A stretch of 64,000 bases of DNA from Thermoanaerobaculia bacterium (GCA_965232105.1 OZ246956.1:1666499-1730498); one strand, 5' to 3'; positions 8,820-36,075 are shown, counted from the first letter of the stretch. The notes: generated by a model not told the origin, from the letters alone. Numbers and translations: made by a program.

Positions 8820-8904
8820 AGTCGGCGCATCGGCGAAGCACGTAGGGGCAAGTACGGTTGGGGTCACCCAGAGCGCGGAGATCGTGGCCGCACATGCGTT
8901 GACG

Positions 8905-12112: not shown

Positions 12113-12204
12113 TGTGGCGGTAGGTGACCTTCCGAGAGACCCCCCGAAGTCCTTTCAAGAGAAATTCCCGTCACCCTTGGCGAGAGAGCGTTGGCACGCG
12201 TGAC

Positions 12205-15357
<3,153 letters not shown>

Positions 15358-16069: not shown

Positions 16070-17137
16070 CTATTCGTGGCCGAGCGACCTGAACCAGCCG
16101 TCCGATTCTTCCCAAAGGCGGCGCGACGCTGCTTCGTCCCGCGCGTCAGGGATGGGCTCGGCCCTAGCGCAGCGTTCATAGTAGTGGCCGCCTTCCAGGC
16201 GAGGGTCCGTCGCGCAGTGGATCGTGGTCTGGGCGGCCTGGGCCGGCGTCAGGAGGATCAGAGGCGCCAAGGGCGTGATCAGGCGCTTCGTCCGTTTGAG
16301 CAGTCGGGGTTCGTCCTGCCAGCCGAAGGTCATGTTCGAGTAGGCCGAGCCTGGGTGCAGGGCGGCCGCCCGGAGGTGGCCGTCCGCGGCGTAGCGGCGC
16401 TGCAGCTCGAAGCTGTGGTGGATCAGGGCCAGCTTGGACTGGCCGTAGGCGGTCCAGGAGTCGGCCCCGACCGAGTCTTCCATCCGTGCGCCCGATGATG
16501 GGTGCCCGGAGTGGTTCGCGGGTAGCGCGTGAGCGCGCCACCCGGGTTCGAAGAGGCGGTCGTTGCTGCCCTTGTCGTGCTGGTGCGAGGAGACGTTGAT
16601 CACCCGCGCGTCGCCGCTCCGCCGGCCGGACTCAAGCAGCATCGGCAGCAGCAGGCGCGTCAGGTGGAACGTGCCGAGGTAGTTCGTCCGCCAGTGGATT
16701 TCGAACCCGTCGGCGGAGACCCTGCGCTCGCGCCAGCGCCAGAGCACGTCGCGGAGGATGCCGGCGTTGTTGACCAGCACGTCCAGGCGGCCGCCGGACA
16801 TCTCCCGGTACCAGGCGGCGAAGTCCGCGACGCTCCCGGCGTCGGCGAGATCGAGCCGGTGGGCCTCGATTCCGTTCGGCCGCTGCCCGGCGTCCCGCAG
16901 GTCCCGCAGCAGGGTCTCCCCGGCGGCGGCGCTGTCGCGCGGGCAGGTGACCGCGACGTCGGCGCCCCAGGCGGCCAGCGTTCTGGCGACGTGGTAGCCG
17001 ATCGCCCCGGGCGTCGCGCCGGTGACGATCACCTTTCTGCCCGACATGTCGACCTGGTCGGCCATCGGCTTGCGCGAGAAGAGCTCCCGCATGTGGTGGA
17101 ACGCCTTCGAGAGGCCGGATCCAGGTCGGTATGCCAT
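16070..17137 (-). CDS. SDR-family oxidoreductase (retinol-dehydrogenase-like short-chain dehydrogenase) carrying a 25-aa in-frame insertion derived from a repeat element
   Basis: Rossmann motif VTGATPGAIG, NNAGI, catalytic S...YGQSK. The S-to-Y spacing is about 25 residues longer than in classical SDRs, and the extra segment is encoded exactly by repeat copy 16476-16550. Confidence 0.75.
   Translation of the reverse strand: MAYRPGSGLSKAFHHMRELFSRKPMADQVDMSGRKVIVTGATPGAIGYHVARTLAAWGADVAVTCPRDSAAAGETLLRDLRDAGQRPNGIEAHRLDLADAGSVADFAAWYREMSGGRLDVLVNNAGILRDVLWRWRERRVSADGFEIHWRTNYLGTFHLTRLLLPMLLESGRRSGDARVINVSSHQHDKGSNDRLFEPGWRAHALPANHSGHPSSGARMEDSVGADSWTAYGQSKLALIHHSFELQRRYAADGHLRAAALHPGSAYSNMTFGWQDEPRLLKRTKRLITPLAPLILLTPAQAAQTTIHCATDPRLEGGHYYERCARAEPIPDARDEAASRRLWEESDGWFRSLGHE
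16476..16550. repeat. Copy 1 of hairpin repeat family R2 (about 75 bp), embedded in-frame in the SDR coding sequence
   Basis: TTCCATCCGTGCGCCCGATGATGGGTGCCCGGAGTGGTTCGCGGGTAGCGCGTGAGCGCGCCACCCGGGTTC is about 82% identical over 75 bp to 23079-23155. Both ends are identical (21-mer and 16-mer). Confidence 0.5.
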
Positions 17138-20610: not shown

Positions 20611-21090
20611 TCACTCGGCGGGGCCGACCGGCGTGCCGTAGGGAACCGGCGGCTCGCGCTCGTGCGTCGGGCCGAGCGCGACGATGCGCCAGCGACCCCG
20701 GGACGAGCGGAGGTCGAGACTCTGGGTCTCGTAGCTCGCCTCGCGCACGTACTCGACCTCGAGACGGACGATGTCGCCCAGCTCCTCCTCGCCGGTCACC
20801 GCGATCCCCTTGAGGTCGGCGACACGCTGTTGCAGGTACTGCTCGAACGGGGCGTCGCCCATCTCGTCGCGCACGGATTCGAGCTGTTCCCGGACCTCTC
20901 CGGCGAAGAGATCGAGCCAGGCCTCCGCGGCGCCGTCCCCGCTCGCTTCGATCATCTGCCAGAAGACCTCCCGGGGTTCGCCTGCATCGGCCGAACGCTC
21001 GGGCAGGCGGTCGCGAAGCGCGATCGCCAGGCCTGCCACCAGGACCAGCGCGGTCAGCGCCGTGGCGCCGGCGTTGCGGGTCATCCTCAC
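20611..21090 (-). CDS. Hypothetical secreted/membrane-anchored protein (159 aa), last gene of the SPFH-metal operon
   Basis: N-terminal hydrophobic signal/anchor (ATALTALVLVAGLAIAL). Its start overlaps the hflK stop (ATGA-type overlap). Confidence 0.4.
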   Translation of the reverse strand: MRMTRNAGATALTALVLVAGLAIALRDRLPERSADAGEPREVFWQMIEASGDGAAEAWLDLFAGEVREQLESVRDEMGDAPFEQYLQQRVADLKGIAVTGEEELGDIVRLEVEYVREASYETQSLDLRSSRGRWRIVALGPTHEREPPVPYGTPVGPAE

Positions 21091-22022
21091 TGCGGTTGTC
21101 TGGAGGGGGGGCTGGTCAGCTCGCGGCGCAGAAAGTCGATGTCGATCGTGCTCCGCCCCGGTTCGAGGATCGTCTTCCGCATCCGCGGCAGGACGCGTTC
21201 CATCGTCTCCAGGTAGGAGCGGGTGCGGACTTCGTCCCGGTTGCCGCGGGCGGCGGTGGCGATCGCCCGGAAGCGGTCCCCCTCACCGGTCGCGCGCTCC
21301 ACTTCCGCGGTCCGGAAGCCTTCGGCCTGCGCCACCAGTGTGCGCGCTTCGCCGCGGGCGACCGGCACGACCTCGTTGCGGTAGCTCTCGGCCTCGCGGA
21401 TCAGGCGGTCGCGATCCTCACGCGCGCTGGCAACGTCGTTGAACGCTTCGCGCACCGGGCTTGGCGGGCTCACTCCCTCGAGACTTACCGAGAGCACGGT
21501 GGCGCCGGTCTCGAAACGGTCGAACAGCCCCTGCGACGCGGCCTGGACGCTCTGCTGCACGGCGACCTTGCCGGTAGTCAGCAGTTCGTCGACGCTCATG
21601 CCGGCGATCACTTCGAGGAGGGCGCTGCGTCCGCTGGCCTCCAGCACGGACTCGACGTTTCGGAACCGCAGCGCGTAGGCGAGCGGATCGTGGATCGCGT
21701 ACGAGACGATGAGTCGGACGTGAACCACGTTCCGGTCGCCGGTGAGCCACCGTGCTTCCGCCGCCGGAGACTCGCCGCCCAGCACCCGGTCGGGCGCCGT
21801 GAAGCCGAGGGTCAGGCGCTTCGCCTCCCTCACCTTCAACTTGTCGACGCGGCCGACCGGCCGAGGCCAGTTCCAGTGCACCCCCGGCCCGGCCGGCGCG
21901 GCCGTGGCGCGGCCCAGCACGCGGACCACGGCCTCTTCGTCGGGAGCGACGAAGTAGACGCCCCAGCCCAGCCACATCAGGGCGAGAGCCAGCGCCGTCG
22001 TGGCGAGTGCGCGACGCCTCAT
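21087..22022 (-). CDS. hflK: HflK-like SPFH/band-7 protein
   Basis: N-terminal TM. The stretch VREAFNDVASAREDRDRLIREAESYRNEVVPVARGEA aligns with E. coli HflK VKAAFDDAIAAREDEQQYIREAEAYTNEVQPRANGQA. TMERVL motif near the C-terminus. Confidence 0.75.
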   Translation of the reverse strand: MRRRALATTALALALMWLGWGVYFVAPDEEAVVRVLGRATAAPAGPGVHWNWPRPVGRVDKLKVREAKRLTLGFTAPDRVLGGESPAAEARWLTGDRNVVHVRLIVSYAIHDPLAYALRFRNVESVLEASGRSALLEVIAGMSVDELLTTGKVAVQQSVQAASQGLFDRFETGATVLSVSLEGVSPPSPVREAFNDVASAREDRDRLIREAESYRNEVVPVARGEARTLVAQAEGFRTAEVERATGEGDRFRAIATAARGNRDEVRTRSYLETMERVLPRMRKTILEPGRSTIDIDFLRRELTSPPSRQPQ

Positions 22023-23002
22023 TGGGATCCCCCGCCCAGGAGCGAGAAGAGCTCGGAGTCCGCCGACAGGATGACCGTCGTCTGATCGTCGAGGATCGAC
22101 TCGTAGGACTCGAGAGTGCGCAGGAACCGGTAGAGAGAGGGATCCTGACGGTAGGCGTCGCCGTAGATGCCGGCCGCCTCGGCATCGCCCTTGCCGCGGA
22201 GGATCTCGGATTCGCGATAGGCGGCGGCCAGGATCAATTCGCGGTCCCGGTCGGCCTCGGCGCGGATGACCATCGCCTGCTCCTCGCCCTGGGCGCGGTA
22301 TTCCTTCGCGATCCGCTCACGCTCGGCCCGCATGCGGGCGAAGACGGACTCGAGGTTCTGCTCGGGGAAGCTCAGGCGGGTGAGCTGCACTTCGAGGATC
22401 TCGACCCCGAGCTGGGGCCCGGACACGGAGCCCGCGGACTCCCGGACTTCGGCGGAAACCTGTTCGATCCGCAGTTTCCTCGGCTCGGTGGACACGAGTT
22501 GGGAGAGCTCGGTGCGGCCGAGGGCGGCAGCCAGACCCGCCCATACGACGTCGTGCAGCCGCATCTCGGCGCCCGAGATGTCGCCGATCGTCTCCAGGAA
22601 TCGCGCCGGGTCGGCGATCCGCCAGACGACCGCGGTGTCGACGACCAGGTTCTTCTTGTCCTGGGTCAGGAACTCGGCCGGCGCGGGATCGTAGAGGAGC
22701 ACGCGATTGTCGAAGCGGATCCGCCGGTCGATCGGCCACTTGAACCGGAGGCCCGGCGCCTCCACCGTGCGCAACGGCTTGCCGAACCGGGTGACGATCG
22801 CGCTCTCGGTCTCCGGCACGACGAACAGGGACCGCGCCAGCGCGACGATCGCCAGCACGGCCAGGCCGGCGCGCCACCAGGACGCGCCACGGCCCGGCGA
22901 ATGCTCGTGCCCGTCGCCGCCGTTGTGGCTGGGTGCCTCGTCGTGGTGATCGTCGTGGTGACCGTGATGGTCGTGGTGATGTCCGTGGCTGTGTTCAGTC
23001 AT
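22019..23002 (-). CDS. hflC: HflC-like SPFH/band-7 protein with a His-rich N-terminal extension
   Basis: MTEHSHGHHHDHHGHHDDHHDEAPSHNGGDGHEHSPG, followed by a TM helix and an SPFH domain. The segment ...FARMRAERERIAKEYRAQGEEQAMVIRAEADRDRELILAAAYRESEILRGKGDAEAAGIYGDAYRQDPSLYRFLRTLESYE... aligns with the E. coli HflC C-terminal half. Confidence 0.75.
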   Translation of the reverse strand: MTEHSHGHHHDHHGHHDDHHDEAPSHNGGDGHEHSPGRGASWWRAGLAVLAIVALARSLFVVPETESAIVTRFGKPLRTVEAPGLRFKWPIDRRIRFDNRVLLYDPAPAEFLTQDKKNLVVDTAVVWRIADPARFLETIGDISGAEMRLHDVVWAGLAAALGRTELSQLVSTEPRKLRIEQVSAEVRESAGSVSGPQLGVEILEVQLTRLSFPEQNLESVFARMRAERERIAKEYRAQGEEQAMVIRAEADRDRELILAAAYRESEILRGKGDAEAAGIYGDAYRQDPSLYRFLRTLESYESILDDQTTVILSADSELFSLLGGGSQ

Positions 23003-23061
23003 TGGTCTACTCCACGGTGACCGCGATGTTCGTGCTGGTGTTCGCGATCTTGATTCGTCAT
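22999..23061 (-). CDS. Possible 20-codon upstream ORF (MTNQDREHQHEHRGHRGVDQ) overlapping the hflC start. It arises from a 57-bp tandem duplication of the hflC 5' region
   Basis: GTCATTGGTCTAC occurs twice, 57 bp apart (23000-23012 and 23057-23069). Each copy provides a GAGG/GGAG RBS plus an ATG. The upstream copy opens a short His-containing ORF that ends in ATGA with the hflC start codon. Confidence 0.25.
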   Translation of the reverse strand: MTNQDREHQHEHRGHRGVDQ

Positions 23062-23078
23062 TGGTCTACCTCGTTCCA

Positions 23079-23155
23079 TCCGTGCGCCCGATGACGGGCG
23101 CACGGACTGGTTCACGGGTCGCGCGGCTTCGCGCCACCCGGGTTCTGGGCACCGC
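23079..23155. repeat. Copy 2 of hairpin repeat family R2. It contains a perfect 11-bp stem (CCGTGCGCCCG-ATGA-CGGGCGCACGG) in the ATPase-hflC intergenic region and supplies the last ~15 codons of the upstream ORF
   Basis: About 82% identity to 16476-16550. The perfect inverted repeat is at 23088-23113. No T/U tract follows the stem in the transcribed (minus) direction. Confidence 0.5.
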
Positions 23156-26100
23156 CCGGTGGCGGAACGTACACATCGAGAAGGCGGTCGTCCGCTTCGT
23201 CCACGAAGACGAAGCGCTTACGGCCGGCGTCGGCGTCGGTGATCAGTTTCGGCTTGCCGGCGAGCGAACTCTCCAGCGTCTCCAACTGGAGGCGGAAGCG
23301 GTGCAGGTCGCGGGCCCGGCGGTACTCCCCGGCGCGCAGTTCGAAGCGCTCGCTCTCGCCGCGGCCCGCCTCGACGCGCTGGGTCTTGTAGGCCTCGGCC
23401 TCCAGGAGCTGCCGGCTCGCTTCGCCGCGGGCGAGGGGCAGACGCTCCAGCGCGTACCCCTCCGCCTCGTCGATCAGCGTTTCCCGCTCCTCGAGTGCGC
23501 TCGCCGCGTCGCGAAAGGAGTCCACGACGTCGAGCGGAGGATGGGCGTCCTGGACGGTCGCGCTCACCACCTCGACGCCGGCGCCGAGGGCGTCGAGCTG
23601 CGCTCCGAGGTGGCGGCGCCACGCCGTCTCGATGCCGTCCCGCTTGCCGGTCAGCACGTCGTCGAGCGAGTGGCCGGCGAGCACGGTGCGGAGCGAGCGC
23701 TCGGCGCTCGCCTCGACGAGCAGCGCCGGGTCGGCGGTGGCGAAGGCGAAGGCCGCGGCGTCGGCGACGCGATAGTGGATGCGGGCCGCGACCTCGACCA
23801 GGTTCTCGTCCCCGGTCAGCATCAGGCGCTCGAGGGGCGGGGTGTCGTCGAAGCCGGCGTGACGGACGTTCCACTCGTAGCTCGGCCTGGCGCCGGCTTC
23901 GGTGGGGGCGGCCGCCCGCGGCGAGCCGACCGCGGCGACTCGGAGGCGCTCCGGTTCGACCCGCGTCACCCGATCCACGGGCCAGGGCAAACGCCAGTGC
24001 AGGCCCGGGCCGAGCTCGCCGCCGACGTGGCGTCCGAAGCGCTGCACGAGGCCGATTTCCTGGGGCTCGATCGTCCGCAGGCCGCTCGCCGCCCAGAGGG
24101 CGAACAGCACGAACGGCGCCGCCCGCAGCAGGCGGGGCGCCGACGCACGGATCCGCGTCGGGCTGTCTTCGAGCGCGTGTTCGATGCGGTGGACCGCTTC
24201 GCGCCGTCCGGTGTTCAGGGACCGCCAGCCGGCGATCAAGCTCTCGACCGGACCGGCCAGAGCGGGGACACGCCGCCAGCCGCGATCTTCGCGCGCGGCC
24301 ACCGCCCGCCCCTCGTAGAGCAGGCGGACGCAGTTCAGGATGACCAGCAGGGAGGCGGCCTGGTGGACAATCGCGGCGGCGGCTGGAGGCAGCAATCCGA
24401 AAGCGGCGAAGCCGACGGCGATGAAGTTGATGCCGAAGGCGAAGATCAGGATGCTGCTGCGAATCCGGGCCACCACCCGGCGCGAGTAGCGGAGCAGAGG
24501 CGCCAGGTAGTCGAGCCGGTCGGGCAGCAGGACGACCTGCGCCGCCTCGGCCGAAAGATCGGCGGCGCCGTGACCGATCGCGACGCCGACGGACGCGGCC
24601 GCCAGCGAGGGCGCGTCGTTGATCCCGTCGCCGACCATCAGGACGTTGCGGTCGCCGCGGGAGAGTTCCCGGAGCTGCCGCACCTTCTCCTCGGGAAGCA
24701 ACTCCGCCTGGACCTGGTCGATGCGGGTCCGCCGGCCGATCGCGCGCGCCGTCGCCTCGGCGTCGCCGGTCAGCATGACGATCGGATCGACGCCGGTCTG
24801 GCGGAGGTCGCCGACCGCGTCCGCAGCCTCGTCGCGCAACGGATCGGCGAGGGCGAACGCGCCGGTGAACGCGCCGTCGACCGCGACGGCCAGCCGGGTC
24901 TCGCCGGTGCCGGGTTCCGGGACGAGGCTTTCCGCCACGGCGCCGAGATCGTCCTCCGCCACTACTCTCGCCAGCAACGCCTGGTTGCCCACCACGACCT
25001 CGTGGCCGTCCACGGATGCCGTGACACCACGGCCGGGGTGGAGCTTGAAGTTCTCCGGTTCCGAGAGCTCGATCTGCCGCTCCCTCGCCTCGGTGACGAG
25101 GGCCCGGCCCAGCAGGTGCTCCGAGGTCAGTTCAGCGCTCGCCGCGAGTTGAAGCAAGCGAGCCTCGTCCATGCCCGCGACCGGCGCGACCCCGGCCAGC
25201 GCCGGACGCCCGCAGGTCAACGTGCCCGTCTTGTCGAGCACGCAGGCGTCGATGCGCGACAGCGACTCGATCACGTCGCCGCCCTTGACCAGTGCGCCCT
25301 CGCGCGCCAGCCGGGCGATCGCCGAGGCCATCGCCGCCGGCGTCGCGAGCACCAGGGCGCAGGGGCAGGCGACGATCAGGGCCGCCACCGTGCGCATCAT
25401 CTCGCCGGTGAAGAAGTAGATGCCGACGGCAGCGAGCAGCACCGCGGGCAGGAAGAAGCGGGCCAGCTTGTCCGCGGTGCGCACGACCCGAGCGCGCCGG
25501 CTCTGCGCGTCCTCGATCAGGTTGGCGATCCGGGCGACGGTCGTGTCGCTGCCCGTCCGTTCGGAGCGAATATCGAGGACGCCGTACTCGTTCAGGCTGC
25601 CGCTCCACACCGCGTCGCCGATTCCGAGTTGGGCCGGCAGCGGTTCGCCGGTCACGCTGCTCTGGTCGACGGACGACTCGCCGCGCTCGATCATCCCGTC
25701 CACCGGCACCCGCTCGCCGGCGAGCACCCGCACGAGATCGCCGATCTCGACCTCGCCGAGCGCGACGAGTTCCTCGCGGCCGGAGTACAGCACCCGTGCC
25801 TGTTCCGGCTGGCTGGCGACGAAGCCGGCGATCGCCCCCTTGGCGCGATCGACCGTCCAGTGCTCGATCCCCTCGCCGATCAGCATGATGAACATGACCT
25901 CGGCGGCGGCGAAGTACTCGCCGATCCAGACCGCCGCGCCCGCGGCGATCGCGATCGTCAGGTGAGACGAGAAGTGCCCCTGGAGCAGGTCCAGGATCGC
26001 GTGGCGGATGAGGGGGTAGCCCGCGACCAGCGTGAGGATCAGCGCCAGGTCGATGCCGGCGACCGTGCGGACGACGCCGAGCAGGTAGAGCAGAAGCAGG

Positions 26101-26213
26101 ACGCCGACCGCGCCGCAAAGCGCGATGTAGCCGATCCGCTGCAGCAGGCCGTGGCTGTGGGAGTGGCCGTGCCCGTCGTCGTGGCCGTAAACCTGGAAAT
26201 TGGGTGAGCCCAT
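23112..26213 (-). CDS. Heavy-metal translocating P1B-type ATPase (CPC motif, His-rich N-terminus; Zn/Cd/Pb-type) fused in-frame to a C-terminal TM helix + HflK-like SPFH domain
   Basis: Residues 1 to about 655: His-rich YGHDDGHGHSHSHG, TGE, CPC (IVACPCALVLATP), DKTGTLT, GDGINDAP, and eight predicted TMs. Residues about 700-1033: a TM (APFVLFALWAASGL), then an SPFH domain (IEPQEIGLVQRFGRHVGGELGPGLHWRLPWPVDRV..., with HflK-like C-terminal coiled region). Continuous 1033-aa ORF with no internal stop. Confidence 0.8.
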   Translation of the reverse strand: MGSPNFQVYGHDDGHGHSHSHGLLQRIGYIALCGAVGVLLLLYLLGVVRTVAGIDLALILTLVAGYPLIRHAILDLLQGHFSSHLTIAIAAGAAVWIGEYFAAAEVMFIMLIGEGIEHWTVDRAKGAIAGFVASQPEQARVLYSGREELVALGEVEIGDLVRVLAGERVPVDGMIERGESSVDQSSVTGEPLPAQLGIGDAVWSGSLNEYGVLDIRSERTGSDTTVARIANLIEDAQSRRARVVRTADKLARFFLPAVLLAAVGIYFFTGEMMRTVAALIVACPCALVLATPAAMASAIARLAREGALVKGGDVIESLSRIDACVLDKTGTLTCGRPALAGVAPVAGMDEARLLQLAASAELTSEHLLGRALVTEARERQIELSEPENFKLHPGRGVTASVDGHEVVVGNQALLARVVAEDDLGAVAESLVPEPGTGETRLAVAVDGAFTGAFALADPLRDEAADAVGDLRQTGVDPIVMLTGDAEATARAIGRRTRIDQVQAELLPEEKVRQLRELSRGDRNVLMVGDGINDAPSLAAASVGVAIGHGAADLSAEAAQVVLLPDRLDYLAPLLRYSRRVVARIRSSILIFAFGINFIAVGFAAFGLLPPAAAAIVHQAASLLVILNCVRLLYEGRAVAAREDRGWRRVPALAGPVESLIAGWRSLNTGRREAVHRIEHALEDSPTRIRASAPRLLRAAPFVLFALWAASGLRTIEPQEIGLVQRFGRHVGGELGPGLHWRLPWPVDRVTRVEPERLRVAAVGSPRAAAPTEAGARPSYEWNVRHAGFDDTPPLERLMLTGDENLVEVAARIHYRVADAAAFAFATADPALLVEASAERSLRTVLAGHSLDDVLTGKRDGIETAWRRHLGAQLDALGAGVEVVSATVQDAHPPLDVVDSFRDAASALEERETLIDEAEGYALERLPLARGEASRQLLEAEAYKTQRVEAGRGESERFELRAGEYRRARDLHRFRLQLETLESSLAGKPKLITDADAGRKRFVFVDEADDRLLDVYVPPPGGAQNPGGAKPRDP

Positions 26214-26226
26214 CAGAAGGGTGCGC

Positions 26227-26982
26227 CTACACCGCGAACAACAGGATGGCCAGCCCCGAACTCGCGATCGCGAGCCCGCTCAGCGTGTGGACATGGGCTT
26301 GCAGGCGCGGGAATCGCACGAAGTCGAGACCGCGATAGGCCAGCGCCACGACGCCAGCCATCGTCGCGATCGTCGTCACGCCGAAGGCCACGGTCACCGG
26401 TACGACGGCCCACAGGCCGACCTGGAACGCCGGCACCATGAGGATCGGAATCAGCGGTTCGCAGGGCCCGAGCACGAAGATGACGAACAGGCTCCAGGCG
26501 GTCAGGCCGGCCACCCCGACGGCCTTGCCGGACGGGTGCTCGTGGCCGCCGGCCGCGTGGTGGTCATGCGAGTGGACGAGTCCGCTGGCGTGTTCGTGCA
26601 CGTGGCGCTGCCGCCTGCGCCTACGCGCGAGGGACCAGGCCGCGTAGGTCAAGCCGAAGGCCACCAGAGCCCACGCCGCGAGATCGCCGCGGACCGCCTC
26701 GATCGACTCGAAGACGCCGACGCGGCCCTCCATCCAGTGGTGACCTTCCTGGAGATCGAGACCGCTGGCGAAGATCGCCAGCCCGATGCCGGCGCCGCCC
26801 AACAGTACGGACGACGCGACATGCCCGCCGCCGCACAGCCCGGTCACCCACAGCGTCCTGCGCAGCGACCAGCCGCGCGCTTTGCCGAGGACGACGAAGG
26901 GCAGCGTGTGGTCGATGCCGATCAGCGTGTGGACGAAGCCGATGCCGACCGCGGCCGAAACCAGGACCCAGACTGTGTCCAT
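26227..26982 (-). CDS. RcnA/NicO-like Ni/Co efflux-type membrane protein with a central His-rich loop
   Basis: About 6 TM segments. Central loop HVHEHASGLVHSHDHHAAGGHEHPSG. HxxxxxH-type and GPCEP motifs reminiscent of the RcnA/NicO family. It sits 14 bp upstream of the P-type ATPase gene on the same strand. Confidence 0.55.
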   Translation of the reverse strand: MDTVWVLVSAAVGIGFVHTLIGIDHTLPFVVLGKARGWSLRRTLWVTGLCGGGHVASSVLLGGAGIGLAIFASGLDLQEGHHWMEGRVGVFESIEAVRGDLAAWALVAFGLTYAAWSLARRRRRQRHVHEHASGLVHSHDHHAAGGHEHPSGKAVGVAGLTAWSLFVIFVLGPCEPLIPILMVPAFQVGLWAVVPVTVAFGVTTIATMAGVVALAYRGLDFVRFPRLQAHVHTLSGLAIASSGLAILLFAV

Positions 26983-29829
26983 CTACTCGACCGTCACCCA
27001 GATCGGTGACGACCAGGCGATCTCGCGGTTCTTCTGGATCACCCGCACATAGTAGTAGTGCTCGCCGGGCGTAACGTCGCTGTCGACGAAGGTCAGGTCG
27101 ACCTCCTGGTCGAGGTTCTGGCGGTTGTAGAGGAACGTCTGGTCGCGGATGATGTCGATCTGCTCGATGCGGGCGGTGCCGATCACCTTGACCACGAGTT
27201 CGAACCGCCCCGAGACCTCGGCGATGTCGCCCTGCAGGTACTCCCGGCCGTCGGCGCGCATCCGGTAGTCCAGGATGATGTTGTCCGTCGCGGCGTAGGA
27301 GTGCCGCTGCTTCATCGCGTCTAGCAGGCCACCGGCGGTGAAGTCCTCGGCGATCGTGGCTGCGTAAGAGATGTGGGTCGAGATGTGGTCCGATGCGGCC
27401 TGCACGCCGAGCTTGTAGCCCTTGGCCCAGGCGTTCCAGACGAAGCCCGCAGGCTGGAAACCGCCTTGCTGGCCGTAGGGCTTCTCGGCAGTCGGTGCGC
27501 GCGGGGCGCCCTCGTACTCGGCCGATGTCCGGTCGCCCTGGTAGATCTCGACCAGCGGTTCGACTTCGGGGTCGTTGTCCCGCCAGTCGGTACCCATACC
27601 GGTCGCCGAGGTATGGGGGATTGAGATCGCGTCGTGTTCCCGCAGGTACGCGAACAGCCTCGCCGCGCCTTCCTCGCTTTGCCGCTCCGCATCGGTGATC
27701 GGCAGGGTCGGCATGCCGCGCTTCGCGGAGAGGATGTTGCGGTGACCGCCCGGGTAGCTGATGCTGCGCTCGTAGGTGTAGACGGGGACGAAGCTCCCGG
27801 GCAGGCGGAAGATGTCGGCGATCTGTGGGTGCAGCCAGTTCACGTACGGGGTGTCCTGGCCGCCCCGGTTGTTGTGCTCGCTGACGCCGAGGAAGTCGAG
27901 TTCAGCGGCGTCCAGGGCGTAGCGGTAGGCCTCCATCAGCGAGCCGTCGTTCAGGCCGTCGTGCGAGAACTCGGTGTGGCGGTGCGTGTCGCCGCGGTAG
28001 ATGCGGTACGTGCGGCCCTCCGACTCGATCGTGTAGGCGCGGATGCGCGCGACGTCCTGCGCTTCGTTGGGGTGTACCGGATAGGTCGTGTAGGGGCGCG
28101 TTTCCGGGTCGACGAGGCGCGGCGGCGTGGCCTCGCCGCCGAGCGACGGCAGCTTCGCCGCGTTGATCGAGGAGTGGTCGAAGAGGTACTCCTCCGAGTC
28201 CCGGTTGTCCGTCGGCCAGGCGGCGAACAGGTTGCCGCGGCCGTCAGAGGCCAGTTCCCAGCGCACGTCCTGGCGGCCGCGACTGAACGGCAGGTGGAGC
28301 GGACGTGTCCACTCGCCGCCGACGTAGGCGATGCCGAAGATCTGCCAGGCGGCCCGGTGGGCCGGCGTGAAGTCGGGCGTGTCGCGGGCCCGGATCGTGC
28401 GGTGGCGGAAGAACAGCCACATCCGGCCGCCGGCGTCGGCCTGGAGCACGGGCAGGTCGTTGAAGCCCGGGATGTACTCGGGGAGTTCCCGTTCGAGCAG
28501 CTCGTTCACGTCGGCTTCGGGCACCTGCCAGCGGACGCCGTCCCAGACCGCCACGGCGAGAGTGCGCCACTCGTAGATGCGGGTCGCTTCCTTGTAGATC
28601 TCGAAGCCCGAGTCCTTGCCCCACTGGAAGCCGCTTTCGTTCCAGGCCGCCCAGAGGCGGTTCTGGCGATCGCAGGCGATCGACACGTGGGCCTCGAACT
28701 TCGGTGTGTCAGCGACCGGGACGACGTCGCTCCAGCCCGTGCCGTCGAAGTGCCGTAGCAGGACGTCGTAGTTGCCCTGGTCGTACGTGTCCCAGGCAAC
28801 GTGGATCCGACCGTCGCCGCAGGCTGCAACGGCGGGCGTCCAGTCGTTGGCCTCGGAGGTCGAGACGGTCTGCGGGGCTGACCAGCGCGAACCGTTGTGG
28901 CGGCTGGCGAAGATGTCCGACCGGCCGTCGCGGAAACCCTGCCAGACGATCCACAGGTTGCCTTCCGCGTCGCTGGCCAGTTCGTGTTCGATGTCGGCCT
29001 GTGGCGCGTAGGTCAGGCGCTCGGTTCCCGACCAGGAACCGCCCTCGGCGTTCGCCAGGTAGCGGCCGTAGAGGTCGAAGTTGCCGTCCACCTGCTCGGA
29101 CCAGACCACCCAGGGACGCCCCCGGCCGTCGCGTCCCAGCTTCGGCATCAGGCGGTCGCCCGGTTCGCCGGTCACGGGGATGGCCGGTTGCCAACTCGAG
29201 CCGTCGAAGCGGCGCGCCAGGATCATTACACCGCCGTCCCGGTAGGCGGTCCAGGCAACCCAGACCTCGCCGTCCTCGCCGCCCGTCATCGTCGCGAAGT
29301 CGTTTTCCGTGTCCGGCGACGAAAGCGGTTCCGCCGGCGCCACCCGGTCGGCCAGCACGGCGCCGTCGAGAAAGGAGAGTTCTTCTCCGACCTCGACGTC
29401 CGCCGGCCGCAGGTCGAAGTCGCCCCGCGGTGTCGTGAAGGCGAGCCGCGTCGCCGACCGGGCCGCCACGTCGACGACGATTCCCGGGTGGTTGAGGTAG
29501 AGCACCGTGCCCTTCGGGTCTTCCCACTGGTAGACCCGGCGCGGGTAGTTCACGCCCCGGCGCGTGGCCATCGTCCAGCTCGTGCCGTCGACCGACTCGG
29601 ACGGATGCACGCTCCAGTTCCGGAGTGCCAGCAGGTCGCCGCCGGTCACTTCGACCGAGCCGTCCCAGGACTGCGGCTCGGTGTCCGTGATCCCGAAGCG
29701 CACGCGGACGGAGACGACGTCGTCACCGGTGAGCGGTGGGATGGCCTGGGCGGCGAGGGAGCCTGCCGAGAGGAGCGCACCTGTGAGACAACAGAGAGCG
29801 GCGATGCGCAGGACGAGTTGTCGAGCCAT
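26983..29829 (-). CDS. Secreted two-domain protein: N-terminal Trp-rich ~50-aa tandem repeats (beta-propeller-like) fused to a C-terminal DUF3604-like predicted metal-dependent hydrolase domain
   Basis: Signal peptide. Repeats of the form WV(A/V)W...DG...D(I/L)...R..G..WS.P (e.g. LWIVWQGFRDGRSDIFASRHNGSRWSAP and IHVAWDTYDQGNYDVLLRHFDGTGWSD). The C-terminal half (YRGDTHRHTEFSHDG, FLGVSEHNN, ISIPHTSATGMGTDW, ...AWSSPIWVTVE) is homologous to the two DUF3604 proteins at 29938 and 59539. Its stop abuts the start of the RcnA-like gene with a 0-bp gap. Confidence 0.6.
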   Translation of the reverse strand: MARQLVLRIAALCCLTGALLSAGSLAAQAIPPLTGDDVVSVRVRFGITDTEPQSWDGSVEVTGGDLLALRNWSVHPSESVDGTSWTMATRRGVNYPRRVYQWEDPKGTVLYLNHPGIVVDVAARSATRLAFTTPRGDFDLRPADVEVGEELSFLDGAVLADRVAPAEPLSSPDTENDFATMTGGEDGEVWVAWTAYRDGGVMILARRFDGSSWQPAIPVTGEPGDRLMPKLGRDGRGRPWVVWSEQVDGNFDLYGRYLANAEGGSWSGTERLTYAPQADIEHELASDAEGNLWIVWQGFRDGRSDIFASRHNGSRWSAPQTVSTSEANDWTPAVAACGDGRIHVAWDTYDQGNYDVLLRHFDGTGWSDVVPVADTPKFEAHVSIACDRQNRLWAAWNESGFQWGKDSGFEIYKEATRIYEWRTLAVAVWDGVRWQVPEADVNELLERELPEYIPGFNDLPVLQADAGGRMWLFFRHRTIRARDTPDFTPAHRAAWQIFGIAYVGGEWTRPLHLPFSRGRQDVRWELASDGRGNLFAAWPTDNRDSEEYLFDHSSINAAKLPSLGGEATPPRLVDPETRPYTTYPVHPNEAQDVARIRAYTIESEGRTYRIYRGDTHRHTEFSHDGLNDGSLMEAYRYALDAAELDFLGVSEHNNRGGQDTPYVNWLHPQIADIFRLPGSFVPVYTYERSISYPGGHRNILSAKRGMPTLPITDAERQSEEGAARLFAYLREHDAISIPHTSATGMGTDWRDNDPEVEPLVEIYQGDRTSAEYEGAPRAPTAEKPYGQQGGFQPAGFVWNAWAKGYKLGVQAASDHISTHISYAATIAEDFTAGGLLDAMKQRHSYAATDNIILDYRMRADGREYLQGDIAEVSGRFELVVKVIGTARIEQIDIIRDQTFLYNRQNLDQEVDLTFVDSDVTPGEHYYYVRVIQKNREIAWSSPIWVTVE

Positions 29830-29937: not shown

Positions 29938-31872
29938 GTGCAGCGATTCGCCGTTTTGCTTCTGATTCTGAGCCTGATGCTGCTCGGCTGCGCCGCCGAG
30001 GACTCCTCCGACTCCGCCGCGACCGCAGCCGGCGCCTCCGCGGCCGAAGCCGGACCGCCCGCCGACCGCCAGGCCTTCTTCGGCGACCTCCACGTCCACA
30101 CGAAGTACTCCTACGATGCCTTCGTGTTCGCGACCCGTGCCGGTCCGGACGAGGCCTACGAGTTCGCCAAGGGGAATCCGATCGAGCATCCGGCCGGCTT
30201 CGACCTCCAGCTCGACCGGCCGCTCGACTTCCAGGGCGTGTCCGACCACGCGAACTACCTCGGCATGCTGCCGGCGATGACCGACCCGGACTCCCCGGCC
30301 TACAACCACCCGGCGGGCGAGACGGTGCGGAACGCCGAAACCGTCCAGGAGCGGCGGGGCATCTTCGCCGCCATGCAGCCCTACGTGCGCTACATGGCCG
30401 ATGCCGACCCGAGCATTCGCGAGCATCTCGACAAGGACGTCGTCCGCTCCGCCTGGAGCGAGATCGCGGCTTCCGCGAACCGCCACAATGAGCCGGGCGT
30501 GTTCACCACCTTCATCGCCTACGAGTACACGTCGGCCGGCGCCGGCGGCATCTACGAGAACCTGCACCGCAACGTCGTCTTCCGCGGTGCCGAGGTGCCG
30601 GACATCCCGTTCTCGAGGCTCGACTCCTACAACCCGGAGGACCTCTGGGCCCGGATGGACGAGTGGCGTGCGGACGGCTACGAGGCGATCGCGATCCCCC
30701 ACAACACGAACGGCTCCGGCGGGCGGATGTTCGAGTACGAGTACTTCGAGGGCGGCGCGATCGACCAAGCCTACTCGGATCTCCGCAGCCGCAACGAGCC
30801 GATCGTCGAGATCACCCAGACCAAGGGCACGTCGGAAACCCATCCGGCCCTGTCGCCGAACGACGAGTGGGCGGGCTTCGAGATCATGCCGTACCGCGTC
30901 TCGACGAGCATCCTGAGCGAGCCGCCGGGCAGCTACGTTCGCGACGCACTTCGCCGCGGCCTGACGATCGAAGCGGGCGGCGTGTCGAATCCCTACAAGG
31001 TCGGCGTGATCGGCTCGTCCGACACCCACGTCGCCGCCGGCTCCTTTGACGAGGAGAAGTACTGGGGCGCTTCGGGCCTCATGCAGGAGACCCCCGAGCA
31101 GCGCGGCTCGGTGCCCAGCGAGCCCGCGGCCGGGGCCGACCTGCAGAACCCAACCGCCGCTGCACAGCCGATCGACGACGGCACCGGCCGCATCTATCCC
31201 TTCACGACGGCGATCACCAACGGCGCATCGGGCCTCGCCGCTGTCTGGGCCGACGAGAACACGCGCGACTCCATCTTCGACGCCTTCCGGCGCAAGGAGA
31301 CCTTCGCGACGTCCGGCACACGGATGAAGGTCCGGTTCTTCGGCGGCGCGGCGTTGGCCGGCCTCGACCTGGACGACCCGGACCTCGTCGCCACCGCCTA
31401 CGAGACCAGCGTGCCGATGGGCGGCGATCTCGTCGGCGAAGACGGCGACGCCGCACCCAGCTTCCTCGTCTGGGCGATGCGGGACACGATGGCCGCGCCG
31501 CTCCAGCGGGTCCAGATCGTCAAGGGCTGGGAATCAGGCGGCGAGACCGACGAGATGGTCTACGACGTCGCCTGCTCCGACGGCCTCGAGGTCGATCCGG
31601 CCACCCACCGTTGCCCTGACAACGGCGCCACCGTCGATCTCAGCGACTGCTCCGCCAGCGACGACGTCGGCGCCGGCGAACTCAAGACGGTCTGGACCGA
31701 CCCCGACTTCGACTCGGGCCAGCGCGCCTTCTACTACGCCCGGGTCCTGGAGAACCCCACCTGCCGCTGGTCGTCCTGGGACGCGCTGCGTGCCGGCACG
31801 ACTCCCCGCGAGGACTTCCCGGCGACGATCCAGGAACGCGCCTGGTCGTCGCCGATCTGGTACACGCCTTAG
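29938..31872 (+). CDS. DUF3604-family lipoprotein (predicted PHP-like metal-dependent hydrolase)
   Basis: Lipobox LLGC. Motifs [37 protein letters not shown], and the C-terminal [19 protein letters not shown]...[12 protein letters not shown]. About 60% identical to the paralog at 59539-61419. Confidence 0.65.
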
Positions 31873-32404: not shown

Positions 32405-33351
32405 CTAGGCTCCTTTTTCCTCCATCGACTTGAAGGCGCTCAGCCCGTGCGCCTTGCCGTAGAACTGCTTTTTCGAGAAACCGAGCAGGAGCCTGTAGTA
32501 GCCGAGGAGATGCGGGTTGGCCCTGAGCAGGCTCGGCAGCGCGAAGAGGATCTCCCCTCTCAGTCCCCAGCCGGCGAGGCGCTGAAGCGCTGCGTTGTCA
32601 GCGAAGTGGCCGAGCTCTCGGTCCACCGTGTGGATGTCCGCTTCAGAGGACGCCGTCAACAGAGCATCAAGCAGGTGAGTCGACCGGAGTCGCTCCAAGC
32701 TCTGGAAGAAGGAGATCTGGAGGACCGGCAGCGGGGGGTCCAGGATCACTGCGCCGTGTCGTAGTCGAGCGTGAAGAGAATCCGCTGGGTCGAGCGGATG
32801 CGCTTTGCCGCGAGTTCGGCGTACGTCGGGTTGAGTTCGACGCCGACGTACTTGCGGCGCTGCTGTTCGCAGGTACTCGTGGGACCGCGTGGGGCGATCC
32901 TTGACGCTCTCCGGCATGCAGTTCGGCTTTTCCCAGATGATGTCGCTACGGAAGTACCAGCCCGCCTCCCTGAGCGCGAAGGCGACCATCCACGGAATGC
33001 CCACGAGGTCCTTCGGCTTCATGCCCGAGGGCGTCCTTGCTCTGTAGCTCATCGCACGGACAGGGTTCTTTTGTCCGGTGCTCGTGTTGCGCGGTTGCCG
33101 CTCGTGTAGCTGTCGCCGAGGTTGAGCCAGAGCGTGCCGTCGTCCCGCAGGACCCTCCGAACCTCGTCGAAGATTGCGACCAGGCGCTTGATGTAGAGGG
33201 CCGGGTCCGGCTCAGCGCCGATCTGACTCTCTTCGGCATAGTCGCGGAGGCCCCAGTAGGGAGGGGACGTGACGCACGTCCGGAACCAGGAGTCGGGCAG
33301 GGTCGGCAGGATCGCCTCGGCCGCTCCTCGAAAGAGCGTGGGGCGCTCCAA
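32405..33351 (-). pseudogene. Decayed beta-class N4-cytosine/N6-adenine DNA methyltransferase (SPPY motif), split across frames
   Basis: The N-terminal fragment (33351->33049) carries TSPPYWGLRDY...DGTLWLNLGDSY. The second fragment, in another frame (33052->32405), carries SDIIWEKPNCMPESVKDRPTRSHEYL and a degraded VILDPP (from VLDPF) motif I remnant, then loses similarity. At least one frameshift lies near 33050. Confidence 0.55.
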
Positions 33352-33897: not shown

Positions 33898-34580
33898 GGC
33901 AGCCTGAACCTGAGTATCGGGCTTACGGGGAACCGCACCCTCTTGCCGTCAAGTGTTGCCGGCCTGTACTTCAGCATCTTGGACATCTTGAGGGCCTCCT
34001 CGCTGAGGCCGTGCGGCAAGCCCTTGACGACCGTGGCGTTCTCGAGCTTGCCCTGCTCGTTGACGATCCCGCTGATGACGACATCGCCCTGAATGCCCGC
34101 GTCCCTCGCTTCGCTGGTGTACGTGAGTCGTGGCATACGCCCTCTCTGCTTGGGGAAAACCAGATCAATGCTGTCTCGCGGCGGCATCGTCACCTTGCCC
34201 TGCTCGAAGCGGACCAGTGCGAGAACCGGGGCCTTGATGCGCCTGCCACCCATGAAGGTCGCTGGTTCGTGTCGCGCCCCCTCAATCGCCTCGACCGCGT
34301 TCTGGGTCAGGCCGTGCGGTAGGCCGCTCAGCACGTCGGTTACCTCGGCCTGGCCGTTTTCTTCGACCGTTGCGAAGAGCAGGACATTGCCCTCGGTGCC
34401 GGCCTCCAGCGCCTCATTGTTGTACTCGATGAGGTGGCTTACGTCCGCGATCTCGGGCCGCGTGACATCGCCCTGTCCGTAGAGCACTCCGCAGCTCAGA
34501 GCAGCGACGAAGGCGAGTACCAGCTTCCTCAAGACACTTCCCCGGAGGACTTGACGCCGTGATCGTACACTCGCCGGCAA
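33894..34580 (-). CDS. Secreted protein with two TonB C-terminal-like domains
   Basis: Signal peptide. Two repeats, each ending in a GLPHGL(T/S) + ...A(V/L)EA(I/L)... pattern, with spacing typical of the TonB_C fold. 228 aa. Confidence 0.5.
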   Translation of the reverse strand: MPASVRSRRQVLRGSVLRKLVLAFVAALSCGVLYGQGDVTRPEIADVSHLIEYNNEALEAGTEGNVLLFATVEENGQAEVTDVLSGLPHGLTQNAVEAIEGARHEPATFMGGRRIKAPVLALVRFEQGKVTMPPRDSIDLVFPKQRGRMPRLTYTSEARDAGIQGDVVISGIVNEQGKLENATVVKGLPHGLSEEALKMSKMLKYRPATLDGKRVRFPVSPILRFRLP

Positions 34581-34708
34581 GTGGTCCCGGAGGATCGACC
34601 AGGAGCACCGACTGGTCTACGCGGTCCAAGGCAAGCGAGTCTTCTTTCTGGCCGCTCGTCACCACTACTGAGTCGCCGCAAGGTGACCTGGCTGAGCTGC
34701 CCGCCGAG

Positions 34709-36075
34709 CTACTGCCAGAAGTTGTGGATCCGGTGATGCAGATCAGGCGGCGTATCCTCCTGGGTGTTCAACAAGACGCCCGGTCGGATGCCGGGAGAAA
34801 GGACACGCCGCCCATGCTCAAGATAGTCGAAACCGCCTCGGAGGGGAACACCGTCGTGCCTCTCGACGAGCTTTTCCGCGAGGGCGCTCGCCGGATGCTG
34901 GTGGAGGCCCTGGAGGTGGAAGTCTCCGAGTACGTGGAGAGACACCGCGCGGAACGCGGGGAGGACGGCCGTGCACTGGTGGTGCGCAACGGCCGGGCCC
35001 GCGCGCGGCAGGTGACGATGGGCGCCGGCACGGTGGAGGTCAGGGCTCCCCGGGTCGACGACCGGCGGCCTGATCATCGCTTCACGAGCTCGATCCTGCC
35101 GCCGTACATGCGCCGCTCGCCGAAGGTCGAGGAGGTCCTGCCGGTGTTGTACCTGCGGGGTTTGTCGACAGGCGACTTCAAGGAAGCGCTCGGCGCCTTG
35201 CTGGGGGAGAAGGCCTCGGGCCTGTCTGCATCCAGCATCGCGCGGATGACCTCGTCGTGGGAGAAGGAGTACCGGTCCTTCCGGCAACGAGACCTGAGCG
35301 CCGAGGACTACGTGTACGTGTGGGCGGACGGCGTGCATTTCCGGGTCCGTCTGGAGGACGATCGCCTGTGCACGCTGGTCCTGCTTGGCGTGCGCCGTGA
35401 CGGGACCAAGGAGCTGATCGCGGTGGAGGACGGCTACCGGGAGAGCGCGGAGAGCTGGGCGAGCGTCCTGCGGGACCTGAAGCGCCGCGGCCTGCGAGCG
35501 CCGGTCCTGGCCATCGGCGACGGCGCTCTGGGCCTGTGGCGGGCAATCCGCGACGTGTGGCCCGAAACCAGGGAGCAGAGATGCTGGGTGCATCGGCTGA
35601 GGAACGTGCTGGACAAGCTGCCGAAGCGGCTGCAGGCCAAGGCCAAGAGGGCTCTGCACGAGATCATGTACGCGGAGTGCCGCGAGGATGCCGAGGCGGA
35701 GATCGAGAGTTTCGCCGAGGACTACGGCGCCAAGTACCCCAAGGCGGTCGAATCCCTGCAAAGGGACCAGGACTGCCTGCTCAGCTTCTTCGACTTCCCG
35801 GCCGAGCACTGGCAGCACCTGCGCACCACCAACGCAGTCGAATCGACGTTTGCCACCGTCAAGCTGCGGCAGCGGGTCACCAAGGGCGCCGGCTCACGCA
35901 CCAAGGCCCTGCTGATGGCCTTCAAGCTGCTCGACATGGCGCAGAAACGCTGGCGACGAGTCAACGCCCCGCACCTCGTTGCTCTGGTCAGAGAAGGAGT
36001 ACCATTCACCGACGGAACTCAGGTCAGGAACGCTGCCTGATCAAATCGCCGATCCACAACTTTCGGCAATACCTC
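34709..36075 (+). mobile_element. IS256-family insertion sequence (about 1.37 kb) with imperfect ~22-25 bp terminal inverted repeats and flanking 12-bp direct repeats
   Basis: The left end 34709-34730 (CTACTGCCAGAAGTTGTGGATC) matches the rc of the right end 36051-36072 (GTATTGCCGAAAGTTGTGGATC) at 18/22, with a perfect 12-bp core AAGTTGTGGATC. CTGCCCGCCGAG occurs at 34697-34708 and 36076-36087, immediately outside both ends. There is a single mutator-type transposase gene inside. Confidence 0.7.
34814..36040 (+). CDS. IS256-family (mutator-type) transposase
   Basis: 409 aa from the ATG at 34814. Typical IS256 Tnp features (WADGVHFRVR, DGYRESAESW, CWVHRLRNVLDKLP, LRTTNAVESTFATVKLR). The ORF-track extension back to 34559 runs through the left IR and flanking DNA. 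Confidence 0.85.
   Translation: MLKIVETASEGNTVVPLDELFREGARRMLVEALEVEVSEYVERHRAERGEDGRALVVRNGRARARQVTMGAGTVEVRAPRVDDRRPDHRFTSSILPPYMRRSPKVEEVLPVLYLRGLSTGDFKEALGALLGEKASGLSASSIARMTSSWEKEYRSFRQRDLSAEDYVYVWADGVHFRVRLEDDRLCTLVLLGVRRDGTKELIAVEDGYRESAESWASVLRDLKRRGLRAPVLAIGDGALGLWRAIRDVWPETREQRCWVHRLRNVLDKLPKRLQAKAKRALHEIMYAECREDAEAEIESFAEDYGAKYPKAVESLQRDQDCLLSFFDFPAEHWQHLRTTNAVESTFATVKLRQRVTKGAGSRTKALLMAFKLLDMAQKRWRRVNAPHLVALVREGVPFTDGTQVRNAA

Follow-up and report, generated by a model that had tools for sequence, protein, structure and literature searches.

A P1B-type metal ATPase fused to an HflK-type SPFH protein and encoded beside its own HflC and HflK partners: a candidate efflux scaffold of environmental bacteria

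The SPFH proteins HflK and HflC of Escherichia coli form a cage of 24 alternating subunits (PMC12048511). In Mycobacterium tuberculosis, the PacL1 scaffold organises the P1B-type ATPase CtpC into flotillin-independent 'metal efflux platforms' (PMC9374683), and in the stomatin-NfeD operons an SPFH gene is tightly linked to that of a small membrane-anchored partner (PMC2636767). Here we describe a locus that shares features with each of these systems, on the minus strand of a 64,000-nucleotide stretch from a Thermoanaerobaculia bacterium (GCA_965232105.1, OZ246956.1:1666499-1730498; this whole stretch is referred to below as the window). A single gene encodes a 1033-residue protein in which a P1B-type metal ATPase runs through a linker and an extra transmembrane (TM) helix into an HflK-type SPFH domain, and genes for an HflC and a second, free HflK follow it. 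The reading that we favour, at a probability of roughly 0.55, is that these proteins make up a dedicated SPFH scaffold of the HflK/HflC type for a metal exporter, that is, a ring or microdomain tethering the pumps. This core idea was already contained in a prediction made from the sequence alone (the original prediction) and has been retained, although the operon boundaries, the argument from a missing FtsH, the hairpin and the RcnA label that came with it have not.

Profile searches with the 1033-residue product matched both families expected from the original prediction, E1-E2_ATPase (E=6.8e-47) and Band_7 (3.1e-22), as well as Hydrolase (3.3e-26). Residues 85-631 score 534.8 bits against the heavy-metal P-type ATPase model TIGR01525 (cut-off 346.25), and residues 713-997 score 180.6 bits against the HflK model TIGR01933 (cut-off 159.4). 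In the frame of the fusion, the G+C content at third codon positions (GC3) stays between 0.80 and 0.96 throughout the ATPase/SPFH junction, with zero stop codons, and a 100%-identical protein of the same 1033 residues (P0270) is encoded on a 4.9-Mb contig. Using the full protein as query, the PF00122, PF00702 and PF01145 architecture was found in more than 110 clusters (90% identity) of about 1000-1115 residues, many of them from megabase contigs and some from contigs of 4-5 Mb. An exhaustive HMMER scan over 1.84 billion cluster representatives (50% identity) placed fusion proteins at the top of its ranking; among the 149 best representatives, which were analysed, 72 carry both parts, ATPase then SPFH, and 61 of these are full length, with 24-63% identity to the fusion. 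Metagenome fragments of 48-97% identity likewise read continuously from the last ATPase helix through the linker into the SPFH domain. Since the identical protein, these 72 representatives and the fragments all read through, as do the clusters and the GC3 trace, a stop codon or frameshift at the junction is excluded; the continuation of the ATPase into a TM helix and an HflK-like SPFH domain, as originally proposed, is thus borne out by the profiles and by the conserved architecture.

An apparent exception, a 460-residue 'HflK' call in a Holophagales metagenome-assembled genome (L001), is explained by a run of 10 N, a scaffold gap, inside the ATPase gene. One further candidate, L083, with a match extending to residue 726, was rejected, being a 766-residue ATPase devoid of an SPFH domain. 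A contig scan with the full-length fusion was dominated by ordinary P1B ATPases, recovered via the GDGIND pattern, and gave zero fusion loci. Fusion-type proteins are named 'FtsH protease activity modulator HflK' by NCBI and 'Cu+-exporting ATPase' by JGI; each name misses half of the protein, and hundreds of database entries carry these misleading names.

The C-terminal part of the fusion aligns with E. coli HflK (7vhp_E) at E=1.6e-35 and retains every HflK element used in the E. coli 24-mer: the SPFH domain, the long coiled coil and the C-terminal strands. The AlphaFold2 (AF2) model of the whole fusion, with a mean predicted local distance difference test score (pLDDT) of 75, shows in turn a confident ATPase, a low-confidence helical linker (helix 650-683, pLDDT ~55), the extra helix, the SPFH domain, a coiled coil made of a 70-residue (894-966) and a 16-residue helix (968-983), and beta strands. 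In 49 representatives the linker measures 23-57 residues, with a median of 43. The extra helix aligns with residues 80-144 of E. coli HflK and equates to the N-terminal membrane anchor of that protein. With a TIGR01933 score above the cut-off and the TM/SPFH/coiled-coil layout, the fused tail is a member of the HflK family. The C-terminus of P1B ATPases is cytoplasmic, and so is the N-terminus of HflK, which spans the membrane a single time; because both of the joined termini are cytoplasmic, neither partner has to give up its native topology in the fusion. By homology, the SPFH and coiled-coil region would therefore be periplasmic, and the catalytic domains of the pump and the His-rich tails of the pump and of HflC would be cytoplasmic.

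The fused HflK also carries an element of its own, a loop with the pattern W-x-x-x-H that constitutes an insertion in the membrane-proximal SPFH1 domain. In alignment A4 the histidine (H785) is invariant and the tryptophan (W781) nearly so (at least 90%), and the pattern occurs in 21 of the 21 ATPase-type representatives in which the loop is covered by the alignment (23 were aligned). It is absent from the free and canonical HflK proteins compared. AF2 models the loop at a pLDDT below 50.

A search with the linker and SPFH tail alone revealed that the ATPase is not the only exporter to be joined to an HflK domain. Among the 120 best matches, 27 are fusions of about 520 residues between Cation_efflux, the cation diffusion facilitator (CDF) family, and Band_7; ATPase fusions ranked first, CDF fusions next and canonical HflK after them. 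The CDF-HflK proteins, some of which are assigned by name to Chloroflexota (Kouleothrix), Planctomycetes and Alphaproteobacteria, consist of a six-TM CDF without the usual cytoplasmic domain, a short linker, one TM helix and the HflK domain. These proteins (e.g. Kouleothrix aurantiaca SE17_03110, P0044) resemble the ATPase fusion in joining an exporter with a cytoplasmic C-terminus to linker, TM helix and HflK, and in the HflC-like and HflK-like genes that come next, as seen downstream in three different loci. They differ in the exporter itself and, in Chloroflexi, in the fourth gene; furthermore, the W-x-x-x-H loop is found in some CDF-type fusions and many are without it. Since the CDF loci repeat the three-gene SPFH module, two unrelated exporter classes hold the same slot. 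The link between SPFH proteins and metal efflux that had been suggested for the window is strengthened by this shared three-gene layout, although its extension to six genes is not. The CDF-HflK neighbourhoods encode CopC/CopD, SCO1, DUF305, another CDF and a two-component system. In the Chloroflexi-type loci L002-L006 (e.g. L002, 9797-12202), a PpiC/rotamase (PpiD/SurA-like) of about 800 residues follows the three SPFH genes, in the place taken in Acidobacteriota by a gene for an NTF2-fold protein. The CDF-HflK loci are known as database entries only and are undescribed.

In a neighbour-joining tree, built without bootstrap support, the ATPase-fused and CDF-fused HflK parts fall together, apart from canonical HflK (HflK_N) and from free HflK, and the HflC partners of the ATPase and CDF loci form one clade. 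On the evidence of this comparison, the fused HflK appears to be a lineage of its own.

The two genes downstream of the fusion gene were predicted to encode HflC and HflK, and both identities are confirmed by scores above the model cut-offs. The 327-residue protein, whose gene adjoins hflK, reaches 220 bits against the HflC model TIGR01932 (cut-off 134.4), and the 311-residue protein 190.9 bits against TIGR01933 (cut-off 159.4). By BLASTP, the two HflK sequences, fused and free, share 32% identity, and the identity of either one to HflC is about 25%; the genes for free HflK and HflC overlap by 4 bp. HflC orthologues lie downstream of the fusion gene in L001, in L087-L091 and in the CDF loci. 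The next gene encodes a 159-residue protein that is conserved, together with its C-terminal 'VPYGTP', in L001, L087, L088 and L089. Its family has more than 1600 members, designated 'hypothetical', with zero Pfam matches, and all source names given among its best 120 matches are acidobacterial. The AF2 core exceeds a pLDDT of 90, and the Foldseek matches are NTF2-like proteins. The invariant residues of this protein are mostly hydrophobic or Gly/Pro, and no conserved Cys/His metal site was found among them.

The six minus-strand open reading frames (ORFs) of the original prediction, and their tight spacing, stand: the junctions measure 0, 13, 109, -4 and -4 bp in the order of transcription. 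The conserved unit is nevertheless smaller than a six-gene operon. The fusion/HflC/HflK set, which the prediction had proposed to look for in relatives, was recovered in L001, L090, L087, L088, L089, the contig of P0007 and L091 in addition to the window. In L087, L088, L089 and the P0007 contig (42-56% identity), the order is fusion, HflC, HflK and the small Pfam-less protein, and the genes upstream of the fusion differ among them; L091, with a Planctomycete-like context and 40% identity, has the fusion and two overlapping Band_7 genes, the small protein being absent. In L090 (98% identical, on a 5.26-Mb contig), a DDE_Tnp_1 transposase (8459-9883) lies between the fusion gene and the gene for a 251-residue protein that precedes it. 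Because the upstream genes differ and a transposase intervenes, the 251-residue protein gene and the 948-residue protein gene before it are lineage-specific neighbours. Hence, the conserved unit comprises three to four genes: the fusion, HflC and free HflK, plus the NTF2-fold protein in Acidobacteriota. Every core junction in L001 and L090 is a 4-bp stop/start overlap; this overlap is found at some core junctions of the distant loci, with gaps of 3-16 bp, and one of about 200 bp, elsewhere. Ancestrally, all four core genes were translationally coupled.

Table 1. Features of the fusion locus; positions are counted from the first nucleotide of the window.
Feature	Position	Strand	Basis
Fusion gene, 1033 aa: P1B-type metal ATPase, linker, TM helix, HflK-type SPFH	23112..26213	(-)	Profile matches; 100%-identical P0270
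ATPase part, residues 1-632	24318..26213	(-)	TIGR01525, 534.8 bits
Cytoplasmic linker, residues 633-689 (~57)	24147..24317	(-)	Poorly conserved in A4 consensus; partly helical prediction
Extra TM helix, ~residues 690-709	24087..24146	(-)	AF2 helix 685-709, pLDDT 73-87; E. coli HflK alignment
HflK-type SPFH, long coiled-coil helices and C-terminal strands, residues 710-1033	23115..24086	(-)	TIGR01933; E. coli HflK
Fusion-specific SPFH1 loop, W-x-x-x-H ('SYEWNVRH'; W781, H785), residues 765-804	23802..23921	(-)	A4 alignment
Strain-specific intergenic insertion, 109 bp	23003..23111	(-)	Absent from L001, P0001 and L090
HflC-type SPFH partner, 327 aa; His-rich cytoplasmic tail 1-34, TM 43-65	22019..23002	(-)	TIGR01932; TM scan
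Free HflK-type SPFH partner, 311 aa	21087..22022	(-)	TIGR01933; E. coli HflK alignment
Small protein, 159 aa: N-terminal signal/anchor helix, NTF2/SnoaL-fold domain, C-terminal 'VPYGTP'	20611..21090	(-)	AF2; Foldseek
Accessory membrane protein, 251 aa, about six hydrophobic segments	26227..26982	(-)	Close Holophagales relatives only
Accessory secreted protein, 948 aa: N-terminal repeats, C-terminal PHP/DUF3604/CehA-like domain	26983..29829	(-)	Marginal profiles

Among the described systems closest to the locus are the E. coli HflK/HflC-FtsH complexes (PDB 7vhp, 7wi3, 9cz1). The three SPFH proteins pass the equivalog cut-offs and have the same order of N-terminal TM helix, SPFH domain, coiled coil and C-terminal strands, and hflC and hflK are adjacent and translationally coupled. 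The module differs in having three SPFH paralogues instead of two, in the order K(fused)-C-K instead of K-C, and in the exporter, which stands where canonical HflK has its cytoplasmic N-terminal extension (PF12221) and makes for a covalently attached client. It differs further in the W-x-x-x-H loop, and linkage to ftsH or hflX is not seen at the module loci. With the PacL1/CtpC effluxosomes (PMC9374683, PMC13043812), its nearest precedent in terms of function, it shares a P1B ATPase gene beside that of a membrane-anchored scaffold with a His-containing metal-binding motif. Scaffold and pump act jointly in that system, PacL1 having been put forward as a factor that stabilises and clusters CtpC, and the analogy is a functional one only. 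PacL is a small, cytoplasmic-facing DUF1490 protein outside the SPFH family, whereas the scaffold proposed here would be periplasmic, of the HflK/C type and fused, and a profile search found no DUF1490 domain in any protein of the operon. The bacterial and archaeal stomatin-NfeD operons (SPFH1/p-stomatin; PMC2636767) are similar in pairing an SPFH gene with a small membrane-anchored partner in a tight operon. They differ in the SPFH class (HflK/C in the module), in the fused transporter and in the partner: the 159-residue protein, with its NTF2-like fold and zero Pfam matches, is not an NfeD protein, for which an OB-fold/protease architecture is typical.

The main survey of SPFH proteins in prokaryotes (PMC2636767), when its text was searched, yielded no mention of exporter-HflK fusions, and the full-text literature on SPFH or HflK proteins with exporters that was covered, which does not extend to all journals, contains no description of the fusion or the module. 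In this respect, the judgement that the architecture is not a described system agrees with the published record as covered. The components are of known kinds. Their combination, in which an exporter is covalently joined to HflK and accompanied by dedicated HflC and HflK partners, is a new variant as far as the literature covered goes, and it is widespread.

The ATPase part was predicted to be a CPC-type P1B pump, and this is correct: the CPC motif occupies residues 283-285, TGE lies at 188, DKTGT at 327 and GDGIND at 528, and both these catalytic motifs and the TIGR01525 profile assign the protein to the P1B family. The layout agrees, with CPx in M4, eight TM helices (MA, MB and M1-M6) and consistent helices in the AF2 model; the last of them, M6, reads 'VHQAASLLVILN'. 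The best match among solved structures is sCoaT (7qbz; E=7.7e-96 over residues 11-632, including MA and MB). The fusion resembles sCoaT and other P1B-4 ATPases (Zn/Co/Cd pumps of the CzcP/CtpD type) in its His-rich N-terminus, with 5 His among the first 22 residues, in the absence of an HMA domain, in helices MA and MB and in an M6 motif of the same register that begins with His. It differs in having CPC instead of SPC in M4 and H-Q-A-A-S instead of H-E-G-S-T in M6, and in the HflK extension of about 400 residues at its C-terminus. The P1B-4 motifs, SPC in M4 and HEGxT in M6, are therefore lacking. A register comparison with P1B-1 (Cu+) pumps, which have CPC in M4, YN in M5 and MxxSS in M6, was also negative, M5 reading 'GIN' and M6 A-A-S; the TIGR01511 score, 390, falls just under the cut-off of 397. 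Across the fusion family H-(Q/E)-x-x-S is typical of M6, and CPC is present in 43 of 61 members. By sequence comparison, the P1B-4 pump sCoaT appears to be the closest structural relation of the ATPase, yet the ATPase is not a P1B-4 member at the level of motifs. The pump probably exports divalent transition-metal ions of the Zn/Co/Ni/Cd class. In more distant ATPase-HflK fusions (representatives P0148-P0221) the N-termini are conserved, read 'MHRE(I/F)...' or 'MHY(V/I)P(E/D)S...' and have no His-rich tracts; these sequences may represent a different metal-binding or regulatory motif.

From the architecture of the fusion, its conservation and the synteny of its partners, we infer how the proteins may co-assemble, in what stoichiometry and to what effect. 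HflC and both HflK proteins, fused and free, would form an alternating K/C ring similar to that of E. coli HflK/C. Free HflK would occupy K positions and dilute the fused subunit, and would therefore set the number of pumps per ring. Such a ring would cluster and stabilise the exporters in a bounded patch of membrane, as a built-in 'metal efflux platform', and the cytoplasmic His-rich tails, where present, may concentrate metal at the entrance of the pump. The membrane-anchored NTF2-fold protein would be a fourth component in Acidobacteriota.

Several observations weigh against this reading. A complete genome of 6.59 Mb (L092, CP074694.1) encodes the fusion (7001-10225) without adjacent HflC or HflK genes; the partners may be dispensable or may be encoded at another site. 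The combination of CPC with H-Q-x-x-S in M4 and M6 lies outside every defined P1B subtype, which makes the transported metal uncertain. The His-rich tracts that had been pointed out on three proteins are all present in the window but are lineage-specific, such tails being missing from many members of the fusion family: the HflC tail, with 14 His in its first 34 residues, is shared by L001 and L087 and has no counterpart in L088, L089 or the CDF loci. The count of Lys and Arg around the extra helix, 3.0 versus 2.5, gives a weak positive-inside bias, so that the topology rests on homology. In addition, the tree that sets the fused HflK apart lacks bootstrap values, no metal-responsive regulator is visible beside the operon in the window, and a P-type ATPase has a precedent as an FtsH substrate.

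This last point favours what is the best-surviving alternative, namely that the fusion serves turnover. The HflK tail would place the exporter in an FtsH-containing HflK/C assembly, where it would be degraded or quality-controlled after metal stress, with ftsH elsewhere in the genome. We consider this unlikely. In its favour, each of the three SPFH proteins passes the curated cut-off of its 'FtsH protease modulator' equivalog (HflK or HflC), FtsH hexamers are enclosed within the HflK/C assembly of E. coli (PMC12048511), where Arg191 of HflK is reported to contact FtsH, and MgtA, itself a P-type ATPase, is recorded among the substrates of FtsH (PMC13220708). Against it, in none of the approximately 12 related loci examined was ftsH linked to the module. 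The original prediction had made much of the lack of FtsH in the window, and none was indeed found among the 28 ORFs scanned against Pfam (8 in or beside the cluster and the 20 largest with high GC3 elsewhere, several smaller ones being left out). In E. coli, hflKC and ftsH are likewise not neighbours; because of this, and because only 64 kb are visible, the missing gene is uninformative and carries no weight as an argument. Furthermore, tying an exporter permanently and covalently to a protease cage would be an expensive means of running it, and the fused HflK has a lineage-specific loop and clusters away from canonical HflK, which suggests a specialised paralogous assembly and not the housekeeping one. 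Turnover and the scaffold that we propose are, however, not mutually exclusive.

It is less probable still, in our estimation, that the ring is a chamber for metallation or sequestration, in which the exporters pump into the closed periplasmic lumen of an SPFH cage and the metal is passed to clients enclosed there, such as the NTF2-fold protein or the PHP/DUF3604-like hydrolase, or is held back from the rest of the periplasm. A gene for a secreted PHP/DUF3604-like metalloenzyme does lie immediately upstream of the fusion in two divergent lineages, a conserved periplasmic NTF2-fold partner is encoded downstream, and the W-x-x-x-H loop, in the periplasmic, membrane-proximal SPFH1 domain, is confined to fused HflKs. 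Yet most loci lack the hydrolase gene, which in L090 is parted from the core by the transposase, and the NTF2-fold protein lacks a conserved Cys/His metal site. Finally, an artefact or a recent neutral read-through, in which an ATPase gene and hflK merged by stop loss in a single strain, is excluded: co-directional neighbours in a genome of 70% GC often give long open frames and the L001 copy is annotated as a 460-residue HflK alone, but the latter is due to the 10-N scaffold gap within the ATPase gene, GC3 is continuous over the junction and the continuous architecture is kept in hundreds of independent sequences, with identities as low as about 30%.

The two genes upstream of the fusion gene were given more specific labels in the original prediction than the family models allow. 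The 251-residue protein was called RcnA-like. It has 'VHTLIGIDH' in its first helix (an H-x5-DH motif) and 9 His in a central loop of 30 residues, but no Pfam or NCBIfam match to RcnA/NiCoT (NicO) at E<=10 and none in PDB or among plasmids (tblastn); its likeness to RcnA, NiCoT or HupE is therefore architectural only. The 948-residue protein, described as beta-propeller-like with a DUF3604 domain, matches PF12228 (DUF3604) marginally, scoring 23.9 bits (cut-off 20.4) with no single stretch that passes, and scores 53.5 against NF038032 (CehA/McbA), below the cut-off of 80. For the beta-propeller label, only sub-threshold repeat matches were obtained. In the distant locus L089, the gene that immediately precedes the fusion encodes a related PHP/DUF3604-like domain (28% identity over 316 residues, E=7e-16), which speaks for the idea of a further component; no such gene is present in most loci, and a link of the DUF3604-like protein to the module is possible but weak on these comparisons. 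Three DUF3604-type genes occur in the window, at 26983-29829 (the divergent one just described), 29938-31872 and 59539-61419. Two of these are full-length matches (E ~1e-219 and 1e-232), and one full-length copy is transcribed divergently from the fusion cluster. Downstream of the cluster, the DUF1214, sulfotransferase and SDR genes were considered as parts of the module and set aside, being syntenic in close relatives only and absent from distant loci.

The 109-bp gap between the fusion and hflC genes does carry a hairpin, with a perfect 12-bp stem (23079-23106), as had been pointed out; the gap is a strain-level indel and not a conserved regulatory site. In L001, P0001 and L090 the fusion ends in ...QNEV(D/N)Q, with a TGA that overlaps the hflC ATG, and the changes in the gap alter the last residues of the fusion protein in the window. 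A 54-nt direct repeat (23016-23069 and 22957-23010; 76% identity, spacing 59) duplicates the start of hflC and creates a His-rich mini-ORF of 20 residues, MTNQDREHQHEHRGHRGVDQ (22999-23061, minus strand), whose stop overlaps the hflC ATG. A copy of the hairpin with three mismatches lies about 6.6 kb away (16484-16509), within a long ORF call (16070-17137); shuffled sequences predict none. This second copy suggests a small repeated palindromic element, and the hairpin may be of the repetitive extragenic palindrome (REP)-like kind. The view of it as a conserved attenuator or terminator was rejected, as close relatives lack it and the window contains a near-copy of it at another site. A promoter and terminator scan returned 0 promoters and 2 plus-strand terminator-like sites, and nothing usable.

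Elsewhere in the window, 5990-7591 and 12124-15357 encode the HsdM and HsdR proteins of a type I restriction-modification system, and the two genes have further ORFs between them. Two short minus-strand ORFs (32405-33351 and 34559-36040) beside a Mutator-family transposase resemble fragments of a DNA methyltransferase ('SPPYWGLRDY') and are probably a broken gene. A gene for a reprolysin-like metallopeptidase (44785-46962) sits between two paralogues (43226-44752 and 47380-49044) in which an OmpR-type Trans_reg_C DNA-binding domain, TPR repeats and an ABhydrolase-like_N domain occur together.

The effect of bacterial SPFH proteins (HflK/C, flotillins and stomatins) on their clients is debated, and the clients are usually unknown or loosely associated. 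In the exporter-HflK modules, which by source names occur in environmental lineages of at least Acidobacteriota and Chloroflexota, the covalent fusion itself marks the client, and does so with two unrelated exporter families. The modules therefore provide a defined system in which to ask where a client sits relative to the ring, in what stoichiometry fused and free HflK are combined, and how a scaffold affects transport or stability, and they extend the idea of an 'efflux platform' from mycobacterial PacL to SPFH scaffolds. A bolder proposal, which we regard as unlikely, is that of client-fused SPFH cages: exporters in the wall of a three-paralogue HflK/HflC ring would discharge metal into or beside a periplasmic chamber, where the W-x-x-x-H loop and the NTF2 or PpiC partner would receive or use it, in a compartment independent of FtsH. 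If this were true, client-fused cages would represent a proteinaceous metal-handling compartment of the bacterial envelope.

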